Source: an uncultured bacterium (GTDB taxonomy: Bacteria > RBG-13-66-14). Taken from it: a DNA stretch of 64,000 bases. Positions within the stretch are counted from its first letter, which is position 1; each line of letters opens with the position of its first letter. A program made the position numbers and the translations under genes. The stretch lies in contig CAZNZF010000001.1 in the NCBI GenBank assembly GCA_964577465.1, positions 68,785 to 132,784 on the forward strand. Direction: 5' to 3'. Positions 1,061-61,564 of the stretch are shown one piece after another. A model generated the notes under the pieces. The model was given only the letters and a program-made list of their open reading frames with translations. It ran no database searches and had not been told where the DNA came from.

Positions 1061-1113
1061 GACAAGGGGTTAACCGAGCGCAGCGAGCTACACCCCCGGC
1101 GAAACCCCTTGCC
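1061..1113 (+). repeat. palindromic CAAGGGGTT...AACCCCTTG element with 33-nt AACCGAGCGCAGCGAGCTACACCCCCGGCGAAA insert
   Basis: GACAAGGGGTTAACCGAGCGCAGCGAGCTACACCCCCGGCGAAACCCCTTGCC lies just upstream of the dus start. Confidence 0.7.
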
Positions 1114-2368: not shown

Positions 2369-4840
2369 CTACGCCACGACCCCCAGGTCGCCGGGGCCGT
2401 AAACCGATTCCAGGCGCTGCCTGAGCCGGGGATGCGCCTCCAGATTCGGATCGGCTTCGAGCAGGCGGTGGGCCGCCTCCCGGGCCTCCTCGAGCAGCCT
2501 CCGGTCGGTGACCAGCGTGGCCAGGGCCGTATCGGGCAGGCCGTGCTGCCGCGTTCCGAGGAGCTCGCCGGGTCCGCGCAGCTCGAGGTCCAGCTCGGCC
2601 AGGCGGAAGCCGTCGTCGGTCTCGGTCATCGCCCGCAGGCGCATCTTGGCCGTATCCGTCAGCCCCCGCCGCGAGAGGAGGTAACAACGGGCGGCGTGCG
2701 GGCTCCGGGCCACCCGACCCCGAAGCTGGTGCAGCTGCGACAGGCCGAACTGCTGGGCCTCCTCCACCACCATCACCGTGGCGTTGGGCACGTCTATCCC
2801 CACCTCCACCACCGTGGTGGCGACCAGGACGTCCAGCCCGCCGGCGGCGAAGGCGCGCATCGTCCGCTCCTTCTCGGTCGAATCCAGGCGGCCGTGGACC
2901 AGCCCGAGCCTCAACCCGGACAGGGGGCCTTCCCGAAGCTCGTCGTAGCGCACGGTGGCGGCGGCGAGGTCCTTTTTGCCGGGGGCATAGCTCGGATTGC
3001 TCGGTTCAGGGGATTCCTCCACCAGCGGGCAGACGACGAAGGCCTGACGCCCGTTCACGGCCTCCTCCCGGATGAAATCGAAGGCCTCCCGGGCGTGCCT
3101 CCCCGAAAGCCACCGGGTATCCACCGGGCGGCGGCCGGGCGGAAGCTCGTCGATGACCGAGGAGTCCAGGTCGCCGTATACGGTGAGCGCCAGGGAGCGG
3201 GGGATGGGCGTGGCGGTCATCACCAGGACGTTGGTCGAGGGCGGGCAGAGCCTGCCGCGCTGGGCCACGCCGAAGCGGTGCTGCTCGTCCACCACGGCCA
3301 GGCCCAGGCGGGGGAAAACGACCCCCTCCTGGATGAGCGCGGTGGTGCCGATGACCACGCCGGGCTCTCCGGCCGCTATCGCCTCGAGCGCCGGCCTCCG
3401 GTCGCGGTCCTTCACCCCGCCCGTGACGAGACGGCAGGGCACGCCGAGCGGATCGAGAACGCGGCGGAAGGTGCGGTGGTGCTGCCGGGCGAGCACCTCC
3501 GTGGGCGCCATCAGCACCGCCTGCCACCCGGCCTCCACCGCCAACAGCATCGCCAACAGGGCCACGACCGTCTTCCCCGACCCCACGTCGCCCTGGAGGA
3601 GACGGTTCATGGGCCTGGAGCGGGCCATGTCGTGACGTATGCGCTCCAGGACGCGCCTCTGCGCCCCGGTGAGCTCGAAGCCCAGCCGGTCGAGGGCGCG
3701 GCGGACCAGCTCGCCCCCGGCCTCTATTACGGCGCCTGAGGTTCCGTCAAGGCGCACCCGCTCGCGCAGGACCGCCAACTGCAGGAGGAACAGGCCGTCG
3801 AAGGCCAGGCGCCGCCGGGCCCGCACGGGGGCGTCGGGGTCGGGCGGGTAGTGGAGGTTCTCGAACGCCTCGGCCAGCCCCGGCAGCCCTAAGGACGCCG
3901 ACACTTCAGCGGGAATGTGATCCTTCAACTTCGGTAGATACCTATCCAGAACCCGGCGGACGAGCGTGCGGAGGTAGCGCTGACCGAGGCCCTCCTTCAG
4001 GCCGTAAACGGGTACGATGCCCCCGAAGGCCAGCGGGTCCTCGTCCGCGCCCAGAAATTCGAAATCGGGGTTGACCAGGGCGCCGCCGTCGCGGGGGTTG
4101 ACCTTGCCGAAGGCCACCAGGCGGCGGCCGGGCCGGAGCTTTTCCGCCAGGTACGCCGCGTTGAACCAGGTGAGGACGAGGCTCCCGCCCTCCCCGTTCA
4201 ACAGCGCACACAGGCGTGATTTCCGACCCCGGAAACCGCGGATGAGCTCCACGCTCTTCAACTCGCCCGCCACGGAAACCTCGTCACCCGCGCGGAGCCT
4301 GTCGAGTGGGACCAGACGGCGGTTCTGATAGGCGCGGGGCCCGCACGAGAGTAAATCGGCCACGGAGACGAGACCGAGCCTCTTCAGGCGCTCGTAGCGG
4401 GCGGGACCGACGCCCTTCTCGTAGAGGAGCGGACGCCGGGCCAGGTCGTCCACACCCCACCCGTCTTTCGGCAGCGGAGTCTCGGGCGGTTTTGCCTGGG
4501 GCATAGCTCGCGACGGCAAGCCGTACGCTCGGTTCGGGCACGCCTTTTGCTTGAGATATTCACGCCACTCCCGGGTGAATTTACGCAGGCGGTCCGCCCT
4601 TCGGTCGGCGGGCAGGGAGTCCAGACCGCGGACGAGCTCCCGGCAACGCCCCAGGGCGTCGGAATCGGATTCCAGCTCGTCCAGCCAGGCCAAGAGACGC
4701 GCCCCCAGCTCCGGCATCCGGTCGGCCAGGGCGTATCCGCTCCGCTCGAGGGTCTCCAACGGGCGGGCCATGCGACGGGCGACGCTTTCCAGTACGGTCT
4801 CCACGTACCCTAGTCTAACAACCCCGGCGCATCCCGACAA
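2369..4840 (-). CDS. recG: ATP-dependent DNA helicase RecG
   Basis: Wedge/N-terminal region (LLYEKGVGPARYERLKRLGLVSVADLL), Walker A GDVGSGKT, DEQHRFG, and C-terminal helicase motifs. The ORF carries a ~112 aa N-terminal extension; an alternative ATG at 4504 would give a canonical length. Confidence 0.85.
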   Translation of the reverse strand: MSGCAGVVRLGYVETVLESVARRMARPLETLERSGYALADRMPELGARLLAWLDELESDSDALGRCRELVRGLDSLPADRRADRLRKFTREWREYLKQKACPNRAYGLPSRAMPQAKPPETPLPKDGWGVDDLARRPLLYEKGVGPARYERLKRLGLVSVADLLSCGPRAYQNRRLVPLDRLRAGDEVSVAGELKSVELIRGFRGRKSRLCALLNGEGGSLVLTWFNAAYLAEKLRPGRRLVAFGKVNPRDGGALVNPDFEFLGADEDPLAFGGIVPVYGLKEGLGQRYLRTLVRRVLDRYLPKLKDHIPAEVSASLGLPGLAEAFENLHYPPDPDAPVRARRRLAFDGLFLLQLAVLRERVRLDGTSGAVIEAGGELVRRALDRLGFELTGAQRRVLERIRHDMARSRPMNRLLQGDVGSGKTVVALLAMLLAVEAGWQAVLMAPTEVLARQHHRTFRRVLDPLGVPCRLVTGGVKDRDRRPALEAIAAGEPGVVIGTTALIQEGVVFPRLGLAVVDEQHRFGVAQRGRLCPPSTNVLVMTATPIPRSLALTVYGDLDSSVIDELPPGRRPVDTRWLSGRHAREAFDFIREEAVNGRQAFVVCPLVEESPEPSNPSYAPGKKDLAAATVRYDELREGPLSGLRLGLVHGRLDSTEKERTMRAFAAGGLDVLVATTVVEVGIDVPNATVMVVEEAQQFGLSQLHQLRGRVARSPHAARCYLLSRRGLTDTAKMRLRAMTETDDGFRLAELDLELRGPGELLGTRQHGLPDTALATLVTDRRLLEEAREAAHRLLEADPNLEAHPRLRQRLESVYGPGDLGVVA

Positions 4841-7505: not shown

Positions 7506-7533
7506 GAGGGGGACCCGTGGGTCCCCCTTTTCG
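7506..7533 (+). terminator. rho-independent terminator after C11 peptidase gene
   Basis: GGGGGACCCGTGGGTCCCCC hairpin followed by TTTTCG. Confidence 0.6.
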
Positions 7534-7645
7534 TTGCGGCGGATTTTCCTCTACCGACGAATCCGGCGAATTGACACGACGGATGGGCCTTGGTAAGCTT
7601 GCGCCTCCCAAGGCCGAATACAAAAACAACATCCGGGGTGAAAAT

Positions 7646-8155: not shown

Positions 8156-8255
8156 CGGAAACACGTAGGGCGGTAGCTCTGTATGCCGCCCGTTTTCGCA
8201 CCAGAGGGCGGGGTACGGAGCCCCCGCCCTACATTATCCCATCCCATCTTTGAGA

Positions 8256-8285
8256 GGGGAGGGCCCGGGGGCCCTCCTTTTTTTA
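8256..8285 (+). terminator. rho-independent terminator
   Basis: GGAGGGCCCGGGGGCCCTCC hairpin followed by a T7 tract. Confidence 0.6.
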
Positions 8286-8305: not shown

Positions 8306-8337
8306 AAAACAAGGGGTTTTAACCCCTTGTCTTTTTT
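8306..8337. repeat. palindromic element AAAAACAAGGGGTTTTAACCCCTTGTCTTTTTT (bidirectional terminator-like)
   Basis: Perfect inverted repeat CAAGGGGTT/AACCCCTTG flanked by A and T tracts, between convergent genes. The same palindrome recurs at 1061, 2315, 32405, 36528 and 43957. Confidence 0.7.
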
Positions 8338-32404: not shown

Positions 32405-32430
32405 AGACGAGGGAATTAGACCCCTTGTCC
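32405..32430. repeat. degenerate copy of CAAGGGG...CCCCTTG palindromic element
   Basis: GACGAGGGAATTAGACCCCTTGTCC lies between two minus-strand genes. Confidence 0.4.
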
Positions 32431-32904
32431 ACTCTTTTCGGAAACCAGCGCCGTCGCCCAGGCCGCGATACCCTCGCCCCGGCCGGTGCAGCCGAGCCCC
32501 TCGGTGGTCGTGGCCTTGACACAGACCCGGCCCGCGTCCAGGCCGAGAATCCGCCCCAGCTTTTCCCGCATCGCCGGAACGTGGGGCGCCAGCTTCGGCC
32601 GCTCGCAGGCGACGACCGCGTCCACGTTGACCACGGCCAATCCGGCCTCGGCGAGCATCCCCGCCACCTCGGCCAGAAGGGCGCAGGAATCGGCCCCGGC
32701 GTATCGGGGATCGTCGTCGGGAAAGTGTTGGCCGATGTCGGGCAGCCCCGCCGCCCCCAACAGGGCATCCATCACCGCGTGGACCAGCACGTCGGCGTCG
32801 GAATGCCCGGCGAGCCCCAGCTCGAAGGGAATCTCGACCCCGCCCAGGACCAGCCTGCGGTCGGGCGTCAGCCGGTGCACGTCGAACCCGATTCCGACCC
32901 TCAT
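32416..32904 (-). CDS. ispF: 2-C-methyl-D-erythritol 2,4-cyclodiphosphate synthase
   Basis: MRVGIGFDVHRL...GHSDADVLVHAVMDALLGA is the canonical IspF pattern. ATG at 32904. Confidence 0.9.
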   Translation of the reverse strand: MRVGIGFDVHRLTPDRRLVLGGVEIPFELGLAGHSDADVLVHAVMDALLGAAGLPDIGQHFPDDDPRYAGADSCALLAEVAGMLAEAGLAVVNVDAVVACERPKLAPHVPAMREKLGRILGLDAGRVCVKATTTEGLGCTGRGEGIAAWATALVSEKSGQGV

Positions 32905-35545: not shown

Positions 35546-36520
35546 ATGGGGTATGATTGGCTGAACAATAGAAACAAGCGGTGGCGGATGAACGACCAGA
35601 AAGACAGCGGAACGGGGTTCGGTCTCGACTCGCAATCCCAGGACCGGCCGAAGTTCGAGGGGTTCGGCTTCGATGAGCCGGCCGGGCAGCCGGCCCCCCT
35701 CACCAAGAAACCGCGGTCCGGGAAACTCGCCCGTCTGAGGACCGTGCTGCTCTACATCGGCCTGGCCGTGGGCGCCCTCGTCGTCGGCATGCTTCTGGCC
35801 AATTTCATCATCATGCCCCTGTTGGTGGGGGGCGAGGAGGTCGAGGTCCCCGACCTGACGAACATGAGCTTCGAGGCGGCGTCCTCCCAGTTGGTCGAAA
35901 TGGGCCTCAACTACGAGAAGGTGGCCGAGGAGTACTCGGCGGACGTGCCGGCCGGGTACGTCGTCAGCCAGCGTCAGGAACCGGGGATGAACGTGCGCCC
36001 GGGCCGCATCATCGAGCTCACCGTCTCCGCCGGTTCCGAGGACGTCCGCATCCCCAACGTGACCAAGATGAGCCAGCGCCAGGCCGAGGACGTCCTGCGC
36101 CGCGCCGGGCTGGTGGTGGGCAAGGTCCGCGAAAGCTACGACCCCAACGTCCCGGAAGGCTCGGTCATCGGCCAGAACCCCGAGCCGGGGCGCGAGGTGC
36201 CGCGCGGAACCAGAATAGACCTCCTCGTCTCGCTGGGCTCCGAGGAGACCACCTTCAAGATGCCGAACCTGGTCGGCGCCGATTACCGCACCGCCGTCAG
36301 CCGCGTCTCCACCTGGGAACTGGTGATGGGGGACACCACCTTCGAATTTTCCTCCAGCATCCCGCCGGGCCACATCATCCGCCAGTCCCCCGAGGTCGGC
36401 GCGACGGTGGTCCGGGGCGACACGGTGACCGTGGTAATAAGCAAGGGCCCGCCCACCGGCGGTGAGACGGTCCCGACGCCCGAGGGTGGCGGGGAAACGC
36501 CGCCGCCGGACACCTTCTGA
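35546..36520 (+). CDS. membrane-anchored protein with three PASTA domains (no kinase or PBP domain)
   Basis: TM helix LLYIGLAVGALVVGMLLANFII is followed by three repeats of the PASTA pattern (VPDLTNMS..., IPNVTKMS..., MPNLVGAD...). Confidence 0.7.
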   Translation: MGYDWLNNRNKRWRMNDQKDSGTGFGLDSQSQDRPKFEGFGFDEPAGQPAPLTKKPRSGKLARLRTVLLYIGLAVGALVVGMLLANFIIMPLLVGGEEVEVPDLTNMSFEAASSQLVEMGLNYEKVAEEYSADVPAGYVVSQRQEPGMNVRPGRIIELTVSAGSEDVRIPNVTKMSQRQAEDVLRRAGLVVGKVRESYDPNVPEGSVIGQNPEPGREVPRGTRIDLLVSLGSEETTFKMPNLVGADYRTAVSRVSTWELVMGDTTFEFSSSIPPGHIIRQSPEVGATVVRGDTVTVVISKGPPTGGETVPTPEGGGETPPPDTF

Positions 36521-36527
36521 GGAAGGA

Positions 36528-36582
36528 GACAAGGGGTTTAACCGAGCTTTAGCGAGCTACGCCCCGGCGAAACCCCTTGCCT
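36528..36582 (+). repeat. palindromic CAAGGGGTT...AACCCCTTG element with 33-nt AACCGAGC...GGCGAAA insert in loop
   Basis: GACAAGGGGTTTAACCGAGCTTTAGCGAGCTACGCCCCGGCGAAACCCCTTGCC. The same composite occurs at 1061-1113. Confidence 0.7.
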
Positions 36583-36585
36583 GTG

Positions 36586-37297: not shown

Positions 37298-38665
37298 ATG
37301 TTCGACCGCATCACAGACCGGCTCTCCGCCGTCTTCAAGAAGCTCACCGGGCGGGGGAAGCTCACCGAGGCGAACGTCTCCGACGCCCTGCGGGAAGTGC
37401 GCGTCGCCCTCCTGGAGGCCGACGTCAGCCTCGCCGTGGTGAAGGGCTTTCTGGAGGGGGTGCGGGCCGGTGCGCTGGGCGAGGCCGTCCTGGGCTCGCT
37501 GACGCCGGGGCAGCAGTTCATCGGCGTGGTGCAGCGGGAGCTGACCGCGCTCCTGGCGAAAAACGCCGGTGAATTCAACCTCCCCGTGCCGGCCACGGTG
37601 ATGCTGGTGGGCCTGCAGGGGTCTGGGAAGACGACCACGGCGGCCAAGCTGGCCCGCTGGTATTCGAAACACGGCGACCGGCGCTCGCTCCTGGCGGCCT
37701 GCGACGTTCAACGCCCGGCGGCGAGGGAGCAGTTGGAAATTTTAGCCGGGCACGTAGGAGCGGAATCTTTCCCTGAAAAATTCACCGCCGACGCCGTGGG
37801 CACGGCGCTGTCCGCCAAGCGTCAGGCCGATCGGCGCAACCTGGACCTGACGGTGGTGGACACGGCGGGCCGGCTGCAGATCGACGAGCCGCTGATGGCC
37901 GAGCTGGCGGAGATGAAGGGGAAGCTGCGGCCCCAGGCGGTTTTCCTGGTCGTGGACGCCGCCTCGGGCCAGGAGGCGCTGGGCGTCGCGGAGGCCTTCC
38001 ACGGGCGGCTGGGGCTGGACGGGGTCGTCGTGAGCCGGCTGGACGGCGACGCCCGGGGCGGCTGCATCCTCTCCATCGCCGGCGGCCTGGGGGTGCCCCT
38101 CCGCTTCGTCGGCACCGGCGAGAACCCCGACGACCTGGAGCCCTTCGACCCCGACCGCCTCTCCCGGCGCATCCTCGGCCTGGGCGACGTGGTGGGGCTG
38201 GTGGAGAAGGCTCGGCATGCCTTCGACGCCCGGCAGGCCGAGCGCCTGGCGGAGAGGGCGGTCAAGGGCGGCTTCGACATGGAAGACTTCGCCGAGCAGC
38301 TCCGGGGAATCCAGAAGATGGGCCGGATGGCCGACATCCTGGCGCTGGTCCCCGGCATGCGCCGGTTCGCGCAGGGGTCCGACGGGGAGGGGCTGGACCG
38401 GGGGATGAAGCGGGCGGCGGCGATAATGGACTCCATGACCCCCGACGAGCGCCGGCACCCCAACCTCATCGACGGCTCGCGGCGGCGGCGCATCGCTGCG
38501 GGCTCCGGCACGACCACCGCCGACGTGAACCGCCTCCTGGCCCAGTACCGCTCCATGGCCAAGGCCTTCGACGGGCTTTCGGGAAAGAAGGGCCGGCGGA
38601 TGATGCAGCGGTTGGGGCTCGACCCCGACCGGCTCCCCGAGCTCCCGCCGGAGGCGCTCCGATGA
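37298..38665 (+). CDS. ffh: signal recognition particle protein Ffh
   Basis: N-domain, G-domain (GLQGSGKTTT, DTAGR) and a Met-rich M-domain. Confidence 0.9.
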   Translation: MFDRITDRLSAVFKKLTGRGKLTEANVSDALREVRVALLEADVSLAVVKGFLEGVRAGALGEAVLGSLTPGQQFIGVVQRELTALLAKNAGEFNLPVPATVMLVGLQGSGKTTTAAKLARWYSKHGDRRSLLAACDVQRPAAREQLEILAGHVGAESFPEKFTADAVGTALSAKRQADRRNLDLTVVDTAGRLQIDEPLMAELAEMKGKLRPQAVFLVVDAASGQEALGVAEAFHGRLGLDGVVVSRLDGDARGGCILSIAGGLGVPLRFVGTGENPDDLEPFDPDRLSRRILGLGDVVGLVEKARHAFDARQAERLAERAVKGGFDMEDFAEQLRGIQKMGRMADILALVPGMRRFAQGSDGEGLDRGMKRAAAIMDSMTPDERRHPNLIDGSRRRRIAAGSGTTTADVNRLLAQYRSMAKAFDGLSGKKGRRMMQRLGLDPDRLPELPPEALR

Positions 38666-39795
38666 ACGTTCTGCTCCTCACCCACGATTACCCGCCGGCC
38701 AATCCCGGCGGGATGAGCTTCGGCTACCGCAACCTGATGGCCCACTGGCCGCGGGGGGCCCGCGTCGTCCTGACCCCGGCCCACCCCGACGGCCCGGCCT
38801 CGGAACGGCGGGACGGGGTGTTTGTGCACCGCATCCCGCTCAAGCCGCTTAACCTGCGCCCGTGGTACCGGACGGCCCTCCGCCTGGCTCACGAGCACGA
38901 CGTCGAGCTGATTCTCTGCGGGAACGCCAGCCCCTTCCGCTACGTCGCCGACCGGCTGATGAAACGGGACCGCCTGCCCTACGTCCTCTTCTTTCACGGA
39001 AACGACCTGATGCGGCTGGCCGCGCGTATCCGCCGCTCACCCTGGCACCGTTTGAGCTGGCGCGGGACCCGGCGGCGGCTGACCGCCCTCAGCGTCAACA
39101 CGCGCCACGTCGCCGGTCTCGCCGAGCGGCTCCTGGGCGTCGACACCGGGAGAATCATCGTCTCGCCCCCCGGGGTGGACGACCGTTTTCTGGGTCTCGA
39201 AATCGAGCCGCCCCGCTTCGCGCCCGGTGAGCCGGTGCGCCTGGTGACCGTGGGCCGGCTCACGCCGCGCAAGGGGGTGGACCGGGTCATCGAGTCCCTT
39301 CCGCTCCTCGTAAGCCGCGGCCACGACGTACGCTACCGCGTCGTAGGGAGGGGGGACCAGGAACCTTATAGTGAACTGGCCCGCCGCCTGGGGGTGGACG
39401 ACCGGGTGAGCTTCGCCGGGTTCGTGGACGACCGGGGGCTGGAAGAGGAGCTCCGGGCCTGCGACATCTTCGTCATGGTCTCGCGCGTGATGGAGGAGGG
39501 CCGGGACCTGGAGGGCTTCGGCATCGTGTACCTCGAGGCCGGGGCGTTCAAGCGGCCCGTCGTGGCCGGTGCCACGGGCGGCGTTCCCGACGCGGTCCTC
39601 GACGGCGAAACCGGCTTTCTGGTGGGCGACCCGGACTCGGCCGGGGAGGTTGCGCAAAAAATCGCGCGCGTGCTCCGGGACCCGGAAAGGGCCCGGGCCA
39701 TGGCCGAGCGGGCCTACGAGAGGGTCAACCGCGAATTCCCCTGGGAGGTGCGCGACGCGGAACTCTACCGGGAGCTCACCCGGCGGTTGAAATAA
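38662..39795 (+). CDS. glycosyltransferase family 4
   Basis: LLLTHDYPPANPGG at the N-terminus and GFGIVYLEAGAFKRPVVAGATGGVPDAV at the C-terminus. The ATG overlaps the ffh stop by 4 nt. Confidence 0.75.
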   Translation: MNVLLLTHDYPPANPGGMSFGYRNLMAHWPRGARVVLTPAHPDGPASERRDGVFVHRIPLKPLNLRPWYRTALRLAHEHDVELILCGNASPFRYVADRLMKRDRLPYVLFFHGNDLMRLAARIRRSPWHRLSWRGTRRRLTALSVNTRHVAGLAERLLGVDTGRIIVSPPGVDDRFLGLEIEPPRFAPGEPVRLVTVGRLTPRKGVDRVIESLPLLVSRGHDVRYRVVGRGDQEPYSELARRLGVDDRVSFAGFVDDRGLEEELRACDIFVMVSRVMEEGRDLEGFGIVYLEAGAFKRPVVAGATGGVPDAVLDGETGFLVGDPDSAGEVAQKIARVLRDPERARAMAERAYERVNREFPWEVRDAELYRELTRRLK

Positions 39796-43044: not shown

Positions 43045-43905
43045 ATGAAAAACGAAGCGAAGCGAGTTGCGCCCCGGCGAACCGAGCGAAGCGAGCTACG
43101 CCCCCGGCGAAACGTACTCATCATAGACGACGAGGAAGACCTCCTGGAGCCCCTGACCCTGGGCCTCGAGCAGCTCTCGCCGGAGTTCAGCTACACCGCC
43201 ACCTCCGACCCGGTGGAGGGGATGGTGCTGCTCGACCGCAACCCGGTGGACATCCTGGTCACCGACATGATAATGCCCTACGTCACCGGCCTGGACATCA
43301 TCGAGCAGGTCATCAACCATTTCCCACGGACCGCCTGCATCCTGATGACGGCCTACGGCTCGGCGGACATCGAGCTGATTCTGGACGAGTACTCGGTCAA
43401 CTACGTCGAGAAACCGCTGGACCTGGATGTGCTCCACCGGATGATCGTCAGCCTGAGCCGTGAACCCAAGGCCGTCACCGATCTCAGCGTGGTCACCCTT
43501 CCCACCTTCGTCCGGGTGCTGGCGGCGAAGGAGCTGACCTGCCGGGTCGACATCGAGTGCGAGGAGAAGAAGAGGAACGGGACACTGTTCTTCTCGCGGG
43601 GGGAGCTCTTCCACGCCAAGCTCGCCAATCTGTCGCCCGAGGCGGCGGTGGTGGCCATGCTGACCTGCGAAAAGGCGAAGATAACCATCCACCAGCTCAA
43701 GCACCCCTTCCACCGGAAAATCCATCGGAGCCTGGAGGAGATTCTGCACGTAACGTCGGGAGAGGAAGAGGGACCCTTCGCCGCCATCGGCGGTGCGGAT
43801 TCCCCCGACCAGACCGAAAACGGCTACGCCAACACCCAGGACCTCATCGGGCTGCTTTCTGCGGGCGTCACCCTGCGCTACAACCTGCTCCAACGGAAGG
43901 GATGA
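43045..43905 (+). CDS. response-regulator receiver domain protein with C-terminal DUF4388-like domain
   Basis: REC motifs are present (VLIIDDEED, ILVTDMIMP, ILMTAYGS). The first ~22 codons are encoded by the 33-nt repeat, so the true start is uncertain. Confidence 0.65.
   Translation: MKNEAKRVAPRRTERSELRPRRNVLIIDDEEDLLEPLTLGLEQLSPEFSYTATSDPVEGMVLLDRNPVDILVTDMIMPYVTGLDIIEQVINHFPRTACILMTAYGSADIELILDEYSVNYVEKPLDLDVLHRMIVSLSREPKAVTDLSVVTLPTFVRVLAAKELTCRVDIECEEKKRNGTLFFSRGELFHAKLANLSPEAAVVAMLTCEKAKITIHQLKHPFHRKIHRSLEEILHVTSGEEEGPFAAIGGADSPDQTENGYANTQDLIGLLSAGVTLRYNLLQRKG
43053..43113 (+). repeat. 1.8 tandem copies of 33-nt element (CGAAGCGAAGCGAGTTGCGCCCCGGCGA + ACCGAGCGAAGCGAGCTACGCCCCCGGCGAAAC)
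   Basis: Direct read. It matches the elements at 1072, 36541, 50667 (rc) and 51863 (rc). Confidence 0.7.
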
Positions 43906-43956: not shown

Positions 43957-43980
43957 GGCAAGGGGCTTAAGCCCCTTGTC
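43957..43980. repeat. palindromic element GGCAAGGGGCTTAAGCCCCTTGTC (bidirectional terminator-like)
   Basis: Perfect palindrome between the convergent RR gene and rpoD. Confidence 0.65.
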
Positions 43981-50351: not shown

Positions 50352-50753
50352 TCAGGAGAGGAGCCCGGTGAGCTCCCCGATGGCGTTCTTCGTGGCCCGG
50401 CGGTAGGGGCGGCTGCGCGGAAAAACGGCGGCCAGGACGTAATCCACGCCGTCCATGAGGAAGAAGCGGAAGCAGTACTTCATCCCCCCCACGGACGTGG
50501 CCAGAATCTCATCCAGCTCGACCCCGGAGGAGTCCCGGCGGAGCTCGGCGATGGGGGTCTGGAGCTGGAGGGAGATGAGGTTGAGGAGGTCCACGTGCCC
50601 ACCCCGGCCCCAGGAGCAGATGACGAGCCCGTCCTCGCCCACCAGGGCGACCTCCTCGAAGGCCGATTTCGCCGGGGGCGTAGCTCGCTTCGCTCGGTTT
50701 TCCCCGATGCGCGTCAGTACCGCGGCGATGCGGTCGTAGAGGCTTTCCGTCAA
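50352..50753 (-). CDS. Roadblock/LC7-domain protein carrying an in-frame 33-nt repeat insertion
   Basis: Size and pattern of Roadblock/MglB-like proteins. Codons for ENRAKRATPPAK correspond exactly to the repeat at 50667-50699. TTG start. Confidence 0.5.
   Translation of the reverse strand: MTESLYDRIAAVLTRIGENRAKRATPPAKSAFEEVALVGEDGLVICSWGRGGHVDLLNLISLQLQTPIAELRRDSSGVELDEILATSVGGMKYCFRFFLMDGVDYVLAAVFPRSRPYRRATKNAIGELTGLLS
50667..50699 (-). repeat. 33-nt repeat element (reverse orientation) inside Roadblock CDS
   Basis: TTTCGCCGGGGGCGTAGCTCGCTTCGCTCGGTT is the reverse complement of AACCGAGCGAAGCGAGCTACGCCCCCGGCGAAA. Confidence 0.75.
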
Positions 50754-50861
50754 CGGGACCTCCTTAGAGCAGCTCCCCGCGCCCTCTTCGTCGGCAATCC
50801 AGTCCCGTAGGGGCGACCGTCCACGGTCGCCCGCAGACGGATAATCCGTCTTGCCCCAACC

Positions 50862-51896
50862 TCACAGCAGCTCCCCGCGCCCGGATTTCCGGTAGATGTG
50901 GAAGAAGAAAGGTCCTCCGGCCAGGGCCAGCGCCGCCCCCAGCGGCAGGGACGGCAGATGGAGGTACACCAGGGCCAGCCGCACGAGGTTGTCCGCGGCT
51001 AATACTAGCACAGCCCCCACCAGGGCCGCCAGCGGGAACATGCGCCTATGCCCGGCGCCGACGGTCACGCGGACCAGGTGCGGGGCCACCAGACCGACGA
51101 AGGGAACGATGCCGGCGAAGGCGGTCACTGCAGCGGTGGCGAGCGCGGCGGCCAGGAGGATACCGCGACGGGTTCGCGCGAGCTCCACGCCCAGGGAGTG
51201 GGCCTGCGCCTCCCCCAGGGCCATGGCGTCCAAGGCCGGGGCGCGCAGGAAGAGGTACACCCCGGAGGCGGCGACGAGAACGGCCGTGATTGCGAGCGGC
51301 CACCACTCCACGTAGGGGGTGGATAAATCGCCCAGGAGCCAGGCCAACACCGCCCCCTGGCTGAACACCGGCAGCCAGGCCAGAATGACCAGAATCACGC
51401 CCGACAGGGTGGCGTTGGTCACCACGCCGGCCACGATGAGCCCCGAGCGCGAGCCCCTCTCCCGTCCGGCCAAGCCCCAGACGGCGAGCGCCGCGCCCAG
51501 ACCCCCGCCGAAGGCGAAGAGCTGGCGGCCGAGGCTGCCTAGGAGCCCCGCGCCCAGGCCGAGGAGCGCCGCCAGAGCGACGCCCGTCCCGGCCCCGGCG
51601 CTGACGCCGGTGAGGAAGGGGTCGGCCAGGGGATTGCGCGTCAATCCCTGCAGGGCGGCTCCGGCCATACCCAGGGCCGCGCCCACCAACAGGCCCAGGA
51701 GGGTCCGTCCGAGACGCAGGACGAAGATGCCCGTGAGCAGCGGGTCGGAGCCCGCGAGGAGCCGGGCGCACTCGCCGGGGCCGAGACCCGGTCCCACGAA
51801 AAGACCGACGAAGATCCCGCCCGCGCCGAGAAGAACCAGAAACGCCACGGATGCGCGTCTATTCGCCGGCGGCGTAGCTCGCTTCGCTCGGTTCAT
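50862..51896 (-). CDS. FecCD-family ABC transporter permease (iron-siderophore/cobalamin type)
   Basis: A polytopic membrane protein with the FecCD signature (GAALGMAGAALQGLTRNPLADPFLTGVSAGAG). The first 11 codons (MNRAKRATPPA) are encoded by the repeat at 51863-51893. Confidence 0.75.
   Translation of the reverse strand: MNRAKRATPPANRRASVAFLVLLGAGGIFVGLFVGPGLGPGECARLLAGSDPLLTGIFVLRLGRTLLGLLVGAALGMAGAALQGLTRNPLADPFLTGVSAGAGTGVALAALLGLGAGLLGSLGRQLFAFGGGLGAALAVWGLAGRERGSRSGLIVAGVVTNATLSGVILVILAWLPVFSQGAVLAWLLGDLSTPYVEWWPLAITAVLVAASGVYLFLRAPALDAMALGEAQAHSLGVELARTRRGILLAAALATAAVTAFAGIVPFVGLVAPHLVRVTVGAGHRRMFPLAALVGAVLVLAADNLVRLALVYLHLPSLPLGAALALAGGPFFFHIYRKSGRGELL
51863..51893 (-). repeat. 33-nt repeat element (reverse orientation) forming the 5-prime end of the permease ORF
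   Basis: TTCGCCGGCGGCGTAGCTCGCTTCGCTCGGTT. Confidence 0.7.
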
Positions 51897-52087: not shown

Positions 52088-52795
52088 TCAGCTCCGCAGA
52101 AGGTTTAACAGCCGGTTCAGCTTCCTATCCCGGGAGAGCTTGCGGTGGTTGAATTTCCACGCGTACTCGGCGAGGTACAGGGGGAGACGGTTGTAGCGGA
52201 TTCCGCCCCTCCCGACCAGGTTTTCCTTGAGGTAGGACCAGAAGCTCGTGAGCAGTTCAATTTGACCTTCTGCTCCAATTTGACACACTTCATTCACACA
52301 CCCCTCTTCGGATTCGCCCTTGGGCAGCCACCGCACGATGGACAGGGAGACGGGCTCCGACTTCATTTTCGACAACAGGAGCGACCGGCCCTCGGCGGGC
52401 AGCGCCGTTGCGTAGACCGTTTTACCCTGTACTATTAAAATATAGAGAGGCCGTTTACGCGTATTTTCCAACGGAAAAGCACTTGAAACGCTTTCAAGGG
52501 CTTCTTCCGTATGCCTCGTTAAAATACCTTGTTGGGATTCCGTTATCGCCCGGCGGAGAACCTGTAGTGACCTCAATACACGGCGTCTTTCTATATGCGT
52601 TTCAGTCGCAATATAATTACTGCTATTGTCATTGATAAACTGTCGAATAATCGCCTCCCACTGCTCCGTGCGCAACCTGAGCGGAAGCTGATCCGGCTTC
52701 CACTCGTACCGACAGGCGCTGCACATGAGCTTGTCCCGGCGTACGCGGTACAGTTTAGAGTTTCCGCACCTGGGGCATATACTATTGGAAATCAT
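52088..52795 (-). mobile_element. IS1595-family-like transposase ORF (probably truncated or degenerate) in a lower-GC island
   Basis: N-terminal zinc ribbon CPRCGNSKLYRVRRDKLMCSACRY. The C-terminal LYLAEYAWKFNHRK resembles the conserved IS1595 tail, but the middle is too short for a full DDE domain. Local GC is visibly lower than in the flanks. Confidence 0.5.
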
Positions 52796-61225: not shown

Positions 61226-61257
61226 CCGAGGAGGGCCGCGGGGCCCTCCTTTTTTTA
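61226..61257 (+). terminator. rho-independent terminator
   Basis: GAGGAGGGCCGCGGGGCCCTCC hairpin followed by a T7 tract. Confidence 0.65.
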
Positions 61258-61308: not shown

Positions 61309-61338
61309 CGGGAGAGGGCCGAAGGGCCCTCCTTTTTA
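61309..61338 (+). terminator. second rho-independent terminator about 55 nt downstream
   Basis: GGAGAGGGCCGAAGGGCCCTCC hairpin followed by TTTTTA. Confidence 0.55.
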
Positions 61339-61564
61339 CGGAGATTGACGGCTGGTGAATAAAAATAACCACGGAGTTGCCGTCCTACGTTACAAGACTC
61401 TTGTATCTGGCTCAACCGCTAAATAGGACGCAGGGCGGGGGCTCTGTACCCCGCCCGTTATCCCGCTCGTATTCTTCCAGTCGAGTAAAACCCCGCGGAG
61501 AACTCCTCCCTCTCGCATGCGGCCCACCAATTTAAAAACGGTGATGAAGACCAGGGGTTGCCCC

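Follow-up and report, generated by a model that had tools for sequence, protein, structure and literature searches.

A repeat unit of only 30 nucleotides (nt) occupies seven sites in a 64,000-nt window (the whole stretch analyzed, positions 68,785 to 132,784 of contig CAZNZF010000001.1, assembly GCA_964577465.1) from an uncultured bacterium, and close relatives carry the same sites with and without it. Clean empty sites exist in close orthologs at all four gene sites tested, namely a small open reading frame (ORF), a FecCD permease, a response regulator, and the N-terminal region of RecG. At A-rich spots (RA/A, the slash marking the junction), units come and go precisely; these spots lie in palindrome loops, in 5′ leaders, near start codons, and inside ORFs. 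At occupied sites, relatives hold different sets of modules. The unit is probably a mobile, indel-active short repeat that is tolerated in frame by its host genes. As a whole, we favor, as the likely explanation, a lineage-specific, nonautonomous short interspersed repeat of Candidatus Coatesbacteria. The initial annotation of the window had suggested a small mobile or recombinogenic repeat lying in frame in unrelated proteins and nested in another repeat, and this has been borne out.

Seven sites in one window

Matches to a 34-mer form of the repeat lie at 1072–1105 and 43080–43113 on the plus strand and at 50666–50699 and 51860–51893 on the minus strand, each with 0–3 mismatches; the chance expectation in the window is 0 (100 dinucleotide-preserving shuffles). 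The degenerate family pattern ACCGAGC-N(3–30)-GAGCTAYRCCSC-N(0–1)-GGCRAA finds seven sites against 0 expected. Hence, the repeat is real and nonrandom, and its density of seven sites per 64 kb comes from a window that was not selected for copies. It had initially been described as 33–34 nt long with three copies in ORFs. Judged by the empty sites, the net insert is 30 nt, still a multiple of three, and there are five coding sites, the two extra ones being in RecG. The seven sites are as follows, with subtypes named after the base pair between unit positions 19 and 29.

50669–50698, minus strand: 30-nt unit of the C-G subtype, in frame in the MglB/Roadblock-like ORF 50352–50753(−), encoding NRAKRATPPA (10 added residues).
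51863–51892, minus strand: 30-nt unit directly after the ATG (51896–51894) of the FecCD permease ORF 50862–51896(−), encoding NRAKRATPPA after Met1 (10 added residues).
43053–43112, plus strand: two-unit array with a net length of 60 nt in the response regulator ORF 43045–43905(+), between codon 3 (MKN) and VLIIDDE, encoding EAKRVAPRRTERSELRPRR (20 added residues after MKN); it consists of a degenerate variant unit (43053–43081) and a canonical unit (43081–43110).
4492–4533 (pattern match 4491–4533), minus strand: 42-nt long-form unit, in frame in the N-terminal region of the RecG ORF 2369–4840(−), encoding NRAYGLPSRAMPQA (14 added residues).
2976–3005 (pattern match 2975–3005), minus strand: decaying 30-nt unit of the T-A subtype, situated in frame in the stretch of RecG that separates its two helicase lobes.
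1073–1102, plus strand: intergenic 30-nt unit in the loop of the palindrome CAAGGGGTT...AACCCCTTG (1063–1111).
36541–36571, plus strand: 31-nt variant unit, with GCTTTAGC as its first hairpin, in the loop of the same palindrome type (36530–36579).

The degenerate extra unit makes the response regulator copy a tandem. The reading frames agree with those first given, NRAKRATPPA in the small ORF and the permease and TERSELRPRR in the response regulator, as does the position of two copies in palindrome loops. The unit at 1073–1102 lies between two minus-strand genes and is therefore antisense to transcription; that at 36541–36571 lies between the stop of the gene 35546–36520 and an ATG at 36583.

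Orthologous sites with and without the unit

The small ORF provides the simplest comparison. Its orthologs P0002–P0004 (89, 77, and 74% identity) have 123 residues compared with 133 in the window and lack exactly NRAKRATPPA. Empty DNA, GGGGAAAAAGCGGCC, is found in the loci L078, L079, and L080, the 200-nt flanks being 96–98% identical. The empty allele reads ...ATCGGGGAAAAAGCGGCC..., and the window reads ...ATCGGGGAAAA, then the insert CCGAGCG...CCGGCGAA, then ATCGGCC.... The added segment is placed between helix 1 and the first strand; an AlphaFold model of the protein has a pLDDT of 43, which is too low to use. The Roadblock/LC7 label given in the initial annotation is weakly supported: the ORF has no Pfam match, and a profile of its orthologs matched MglB chains at E=0.005.

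The window FecCD protein has 344 residues and starts M-NRAKRATPPA-NRRASVA, whereas its ortholog P0018 (92% identity) has 334 and starts MDGRASVA; the corresponding empty DNA is ATGGACGGCCGCGCATCCGTG in L205. The conserved M-x-x-R-x-S-V start points to the ATG at 51896 as the real start codon, and hence the unit in FecCD would be translated. Elsewhere, the same site holds a 42-nt long form (L078, CAYTCV01) or a 72-nt array of a long and a short unit (L206).

In the response regulator, the Pfam receiver domain begins at residue 24. Seven full-length orthologs (65–85% identity) start MK(N/R)VLIIDDE, and empty DNA, ATGAAACGCGTACTT, is present in L081 and L082; an eighth entry without the segment (P0010) is N-terminally truncated and thus is not evidence of an empty state. 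In five genomes, MKN and VLIIDDE are separated by 20–30 additional residues, to which different module sets contribute. In a neighbor-joining tree (drawn without support values), the outgroups are empty, and filled and empty alleles are interleaved within the crown group. The first unit is the same unusual one, ACGAAGCGAAGCGAGTNNCGCC, in every filled allele, which makes one gain with several precise losses, or recombination between lineages, likelier than repeated gains.

RecG contains two copies. The unit at 4492–4533 is a clean 42-nt insertion compared with the ortholog in the assembly MFAF01, and the empty form is GGCGTGCCCGCAACCGCCCGAG in L076. The copy at 2976–3005 is also present in MFAF01, where it is nearer to the consensus; the window copy has lost its first hairpin and, given this comparison, is decaying. 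It is read in the third sense frame as (P)EPSNPSYAP, within the stretch EPSNPSYAPGK, and alignment with the solved RecG structures 1gm5_A and 9wm0_A leaves a 10-residue gap exactly at this copy. At a sixth site, one genome carries a 30-nt unit and another a shorter, decayed version.

For all three proteins named in the initial annotation, close orthologs therefore lack exactly the residues encoded by the repeat, and the DNA empty sites are clean; this check thus favors the initial reading. Two alternatives to a DNA element, a conserved peptide motif under protein-level selection, as the occurrence of NRAKRATPPA in two proteins might suggest, and an assembly or chimera artifact, deserve next to no credence. 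The same DNA is used in three frames and also lies between genes, orthologs cleanly lack the peptide, and independent assemblies from NCBI, JGI, ENA, and Logan agree on the repeat. These two readings are effectively ruled out.

Next to the FecCD gene lies a conserved 235-residue ORF (52088–52795, minus strand), whose only match is an N-terminal Zn_ribbon_IS1595 (E=5e-6, 25 residues). Its ortholog in L206 also has 235 residues, and a 212-residue gene occupies this position in L078 and L079. The ORF lacks a transposase core; a transposase is ruled out, and the ORF is not evidence for a mobile element.

Architecture of the unit

The net insert measures 30 nt, that is, ten codons, and the long form 42 nt. 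The consensus unit is ACCGAGC-GNA-GCGAGCTA-YGCC-NNN-GGCR-A, the edge bases of which are shared with the A-rich target sequence. Two mini-hairpins can be drawn: hairpin 1, GC-GNA-GC, which takes up the 12-nt extension of the 42-nt form, and hairpin 2, YGCC-loop-GGCR. The GCGNAGC heptamer is reportedly a very stable DNA mini-hairpin with a GNA triloop, a result ascribed to Hirao, Yoshizawa and colleagues. In the long form, GCGNAGC is exchanged for GCG-N-ACGGC-YYG-CCGT-CGC, which gives a longer hairpin and adds 12 nt; in the long-form RecG unit, hairpin 1 is lengthened to GCGTACGGCTTGCCGTCGC.

The unit ends are direct repeats, CCGAGCGAA and CCGGCGAA, and a further direct repeat, CGAGC...CGAGC, lies within the unit. 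No terminal inverted repeats were found in it, nor any inverted arms within or beside solo copies. There is also no clear target duplication, since filled and empty alleles share at most one ambiguous A per edge. They differ by a net +30, +42, or +60 nt, and the bases adjoining the insert sometimes differ as well. The junctions are always RA/ACCGAGC...GGCRA/A, with a left flank that is usually (G)A and a right flank of A, a 1–3-nt target too short for specificity to be established. Tandem arrays repeat with a period of 30 nt as ...GGCRA/ACCGAGC.... A CRISPR array is ruled out herein, because the units follow head to tail without spacers and most sites hold a single unit.

Variation occurs at the center of GCG-N-AGC (N is A in 44, T in 13, C in 10, and G in 3), at the three positions that separate GCC from GGC, and in the coupled pair Y19/R29. 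Across all units, this pair is T-A in 80, C-G in 49, and otherwise in 5; among the 34 distinct units, it is U-A in 20, C-G in 14, and never unpaired, and the loop bases vary freely. As all other variable positions occur with both pair types, pairing explains the coupling better than two frozen subfamilies would. The evidence for structure in the unit itself consists of this one covarying pair and of the loop-versus-stem variability. A search against Rfam gave no family that reached the gathering score anywhere in the window, and for the unit itself no meaningful match appeared at E values up to 10.

Further modules of arrays are ACCGAGCGA (9 nt), a 21-nt unit from which the stretch flanked by the two CGAGC repeats is missing, and a fragment of 19 nt. 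The unit and the main submodules (9, 12, and 21 nt) are multiples of three. Stop codons are absent from all three sense frames, and the antisense strand has a TAG in one frame. With exactly ten stop-free codons, the unit can thus also sit inside genes. On its reverse strand, GGCR-TAG-CTCGC places a GTAG or ATAG after hairpin 2 and 3 nt before hairpin 1.

A repeat of one lineage

A pattern scan of one genome per species (185,579 species) matched 77 loci, 72 of which lie in three Candidatus Coatesbacteria assemblies: RBG_13_66_14 (MFAF01) with 54, CAYTCV01 with 13, and Coatesbacteria CSMAG_1439 (DAOVLG01) with 5. The remaining 5 loci are, by estimate, about as many as chance would give for the information content of the pattern. 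The repeat is lineage-specific to Candidatus Coatesbacteria. At least 120 metagenome contigs carry it as well, and the viral contigs scanned with the pattern hold 0 copies. The genome-wide search called for initially has thus located the motif far beyond the window, which is 83–94% identical to MFAF01 contigs over aligned stretches. The literature search returned no paper on repeats in Coatesbacteria.

Pooling the window with the fetched loci gives 243 arrays at 185 distinct sites (orthologous sites collapsed by their flanks), although densities from this pool are not genome averages since its loci were picked for containing a copy.

Two of the five matches outside Coatesbacteria are tRNA-Pro genes of unrelated bacteria, read antisense (L017 5465–5539 and L035 6307–6382). 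They open the very unlikely possibility of an origin from tRNA-Pro: the 5′ half of such a gene, acceptor strand through U33, would have had its D-loop replaced by a mini-hairpin and would have spread via an RNA or att-site-like intermediate. The reverse complement of the unit, aligned as GGGGCGTAGCTC-GCTT-CGCTCGGTT, matches 25 of 25 positions in L017 and 24 of 25 in L035 with two gaps, and the alignment ends directly before the anticodon, at U33. The chance of such a tRNA match is put at roughly 1e-3 to 1e-2, a rough estimate that was not computed. However, the only tRNA-Pro recovered from a carrier contig (L185) shares 10 nt and differs in the D-stem and anticodon stem; it has the anticodon GGG rather than UGG or CGG, about 200 loci having been scanned. 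Other-amino-acid tRNAs (14 from carriers and one from a noncarrier) score at background, the Rfam tRNA model has no match on the unit, and the long form is unlike a D-arm. Literature searching gave no paper on tRNA-derived repetitive extragenic palindromic (REP) sequences.

One more off-lineage look-alike, ACCGAGC-GAGTGCGCAGCACTC-GCGAGCTACGCCGCAGGCAAA, occurs at L048 2100–2142, on a 1.1-Mb contig of an uncultured Actinomycetes metagenome-assembled genome (MAG), with a perfect hairpin around a GCA loop filling the variable slot. Chance or mis-binning of the contig might account for it, as might a distant kinship with the long form.

Consequences for the encoded proteins

Inside genes, the three sense frames are used 7:6:5, yielding the peptides NRAKRATPPA(K/N), TERSELRPRR, and EPSEASYAPG(K/E). 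These are hydrophilic and rich in Pro, Ala, Arg, and Ser, whereas the antisense peptides are rich in Phe, Cys, Leu, and Arg. A peptide spanning an insert junction would be, for example, ...RIGENRAKRATPPAK.... Intragenic copies add 10 or 14 residues at N termini or between secondary-structure elements.

Sense copies outnumber antisense copies by 20 to 4 inside called genes (p=0.0015 for an expected proportion of 0.5 and p=0.013 for one of 0.6, the value that stop codons alone would give), and the four antisense copies use only the two open antisense frames. In palindrome loops, by contrast, neither orientation prevails when copies are compared with the genes beside them (13 versus 15). Since these copies are unbiased, the sense bias within genes is ascribed, by inference, to selection on the encoded peptide rather than to the insertion mechanism, and transcription-coupled insertion is not supported.

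Array length is a multiple of three at 155 of 185 sites and, between genes, at 121 of 144. Codon periodicity is hence built into the modules and not only imposed by a coding filter. The T subtype contains an in-frame ATG (ATG CCC CCG GCA AAA, giving MPPAK) at which the public FecCD call P0020 starts (L206, about 540–640), and the public call in L078 starts 14 nt downstream of the unit; in this way, the repeat disturbs start-codon annotation.

Nesting in host palindromes

The contexts of the 185 sites are distributed as follows.

64 sites: loops of the first host (CAAGGGG) palindrome.
25 sites: loops of the second host palindrome.
25 sites: beside one half of either palindrome.
71 sites: solo.

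The first host palindrome, CAAGGGGTT...AACCCCTTG, has the empty form CAAGGGGTTTAAACCCCTTG, and units occupy its TTTAAA loop when it is filled. Empty copies number 31 in 567 kb of related DNA. The whole palindrome can also be an indel: one with a unit in its loop is present in MFAF01 and absent at about 7490 in the window. With its extensions, (GGAGA)CAAGGGGTTTAAACCCCTTG(TCTCC), the palindrome looks terminator-like and often has A- and T-runs beside it. Its arms hold a Shine–Dalgarno-like GGAG. At 36521–36585, GGAAGGAGA precedes the hairpin and the ATG at 36583 follows it, and folding could therefore bring the GGAG close to the start codon.

The second host palindrome, GGCGGGGA...TCCCCGCC(CTAC), corresponds to a classical-looking, GTAG-headed REP family, GTAG-GGCGGGG-loop-CCCCGCC(-CTAC), with about 140 matches in the 567 kb when both strands are counted. 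Loops of this family host the unit in relatives. Its hairpin pair in the window is absent from the orthologous MFAF01 site; the REP family is thus also indel-polymorphic. No gene for a REP-associated tyrosine transposase (RAYT) was identified in the sampled loci. Palindromes without a unit are placed in the window as follows.

2317–2336, 8310–8329, and 43959–43978: empty copies of the first host palindrome.
32407–32432: degenerate empty copy.
8165–8232: REP-type hairpin pair (8165–8191 and 8206–8232), GTAGGGCGG...CCGCCC and GGGCGGGG...CCCCGCCCTAC.
About 61430–61456: another REP.

Genes are touched by about a fifth of the sites, 24 of 185 lying inside called genes and 17 more overlapping gene ends. 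Many copies stand at or just after start codons (ATG-A/ACCGAGC in FecCD, L050, and the response regulator) or in 5′ leaders. Such positions would suit a functional cis-element under selection whose dispersal is secondary, either a site bound by a protein or a structure, of RNA or DNA, that works in terminator loops and 5′ leaders. Its stems are conserved and its loops variable, solo intergenic copies lie mostly upstream of a same-sense gene (21 versus 9), several of them 7–50 nt from the start codon, and the in-frame ATG of the T subtype was taken as the start of P0020 by the gene caller. We nevertheless regard this as improbable, as unrelated proteins use the unit in all three sense frames, palindrome loops hold it in either orientation, its presence varies between very close relatives at otherwise conserved loci, copies such as that at 2976–3005 in RecG decay to the loss of hairpin 1, and Rfam gives no match.

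Two further observations concern structured sequences elsewhere in the window. Sites at 7508–7535, 8258–8285, 61230–61257, and 61313–61340 are G+C-rich hairpins with T-runs, GGAGGGCCC...GGGCCCTCC-TTTTTTT, and look like ordinary intrinsic terminators that share sequence. ARAGORN calls a tRNA-Ser(GGA) at 39473–39567, inside the well-scoring ORF 38662–39795; its 5′ end is not tRNA-like, Rfam has no tRNA in the window at gathering score, and the call is probably a false positive.

How the unit may spread

For a mobile repeat, three steps can be envisaged. Primary insertion would take place on single-stranded DNA with recognition of the hairpins. Thereafter, arrays would lengthen, shorten, and exchange modules without leaving their site, with slippage at the CGAGC direct repeats and the head-to-tail junctions as the probable cause. 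Selection would remove frame-breaking copies and most antisense copies. The likeliest agent of insertion may be an HUH/Y1 enzyme of the RAYT or IS200/IS605 type acting in trans, which would fit the absence of inverted repeats and duplications and the coexistence of GTAG-headed REPs; we hold this step to be less likely than not, at about the level of the enzyme-free route below.

The main rival dispenses with an enzyme: template switching at hairpins, microhomology-primed copying, gene conversion, and CGAGC slippage would together spread the unit. This is a possible explanation, though one we consider clearly less likely than a mobile repeat. Target sites show short similarity to the head-to-tail junction GGCRA/ACCG: the RecG insert is bordered on either side by AACCG, and the small-ORF site reads GGGGAAA...AGCG. 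Modules are swapped at fixed sites, arrays are built of 30-, 21-, and 9-nt modules, substitutions adjoin inserts, and the codons next to the FecCD insert have diverged. The transposase search in sampled carrier DNA described below, a weak test, was also negative. However, near-identical, sharp-ended 30-nt units at 185 dispersed sites are hard to obtain from 4–6 nt of microhomology alone, and the strong preference for the loops of two unrelated palindromes suggests structure-specific targeting.

Several points weigh against the mobile repeat favored here. It is tied to no transposase or recombinase, and tblastn with IS200 and IS608 TnpA gave no match in about 1.3 Mb of sampled carrier DNA, a partial sample searched with approximate query sequences. 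The patchy states of the response regulator could reflect recombination between lineages and not excision. A substitution adjoins the insert at the two cleanest empty-allele sites and the FecCD flank has diverged, which fits recombination or template switching equally. The single covarying pair could also mirror two master copies. The fold check proposed initially gave a divided result: the isolated unit folds no better than shuffled sequence (z about −0.5), and the whole hairpin with the unit inside its host palindrome folds better than shuffles (z −2.4 to −4.5). Moreover, the densities of the pooled census are biased by the choice of copy-bearing loci, and its gene calls come from a home-made codon-usage caller.

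A bolder form of the proposal is improbable, at about the level of the cis-element. It holds that the unit is the smallest self-contained mobile DNA, a codon-periodic single-strand element of 30 nt with two mini-hairpins that inserts reversibly into coding sequence, is moved in trans by a loop-targeting HUH enzyme, and possibly derives from the 5′ half of tRNA-Pro. If it were true, the unit would be a natural generator of 10-residue insertions in loops and at N termini across the proteome of a candidate phylum.

The existence of filled and empty alleles in close relatives makes the repeat a natural system for studying how proteins tolerate short insertions, and it can also address how short, hairpin-bearing, REP-like repeats move. 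One repeat family may herein colonize the loops of others, a layered parasitism. In practice, indels of 10–20 residues and shifted starts can mislead the annotation and alignment of Coatesbacteria MAGs.

Comparison with known systems

In its behavior, the unit appears closest to Rickettsia palindromic elements (RPEs) and to REP and BOX elements. The initial annotation had placed it among MITE-, REP-, or Correia-like elements; of these, the likeness to REPs holds loosely. [quoted passage not shown] However, they possess terminal inverted repeats and a defined target-site duplication (TA for Correia) and measure about 50–500 bp. The unit is ruled out as a member of this class by its direct instead of inverted ends, the lack of a fixed or measurable duplication, and its size.

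REP/REPIN and IS200/IS605-derived elements share with the unit a length of 20–40 nt, a high G+C content, dependence on hairpins, a high copy number, and the lack of inverted termini and target duplications; two hairpins with neither inverted repeats nor duplication are consistent with the IS200/IS605 type. Compared with REPs, the unit has two mini-hairpins of 2–4 bp instead of one long imperfect palindrome, and its GTAG or ATAG does not appear to stand at the foot of a hairpin, in contrast to the GTAG-GGCGGGG of the host's true REPs. It is also not extragenic: roughly one site in five touches or falls within a gene, and four intragenic sites are confirmed by orthologs.

BOX elements of Streptococcus pneumoniae and mycobacterial interspersed repetitive units (MIRUs) are sometimes fused in frame to neighboring ORFs (PMC3184786). 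Similar to the unit, they are modular, vary in the number of subunits, and lie between operon genes; BOX modules measure 45–59 nt and MIRUs 46–101 nt, and their sequences, sizes, and host lineages differ from those described here. To our knowledge, neither has been reported as a 10-codon unit inside many proteins in all three frames.

RPEs (Ogata et al. 2000, as summarized in PMC10969869 and PMC3184786) are the closest precedent in function, being dispersed repeats that have entered a large number of unrelated genes in frame. Both RPEs and the unit lie in frame in many unrelated genes for functional proteins, encode a peptide that is tolerated by the fold, and occur in noncoding DNA too. The unit likewise is in frame in unrelated ORFs and absent from orthologs (in the small ORF, FecCD, the response regulator, and twice in RecG). 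There is no sequence similarity between the two. RPEs are palindromic, measure about 100–150 bp, fall into ten families, and belong to an alpha-proteobacterial parasite, whereas the unit has 30 or 42 nt, no overall palindrome, a modular, tandem-capable build, and three open sense frames, and it resides in an unrelated candidate phylum. In-frame "selfish DNA" within genes, best known from Rickettsia, thus recurs in an uncultured phylum unrelated to Rickettsia, in the form of a much smaller and differently built unit—one distinguished by its very small size, codon-periodic modules, three open sense frames, nesting in two repeat families, and quick turnover at fixed sites.

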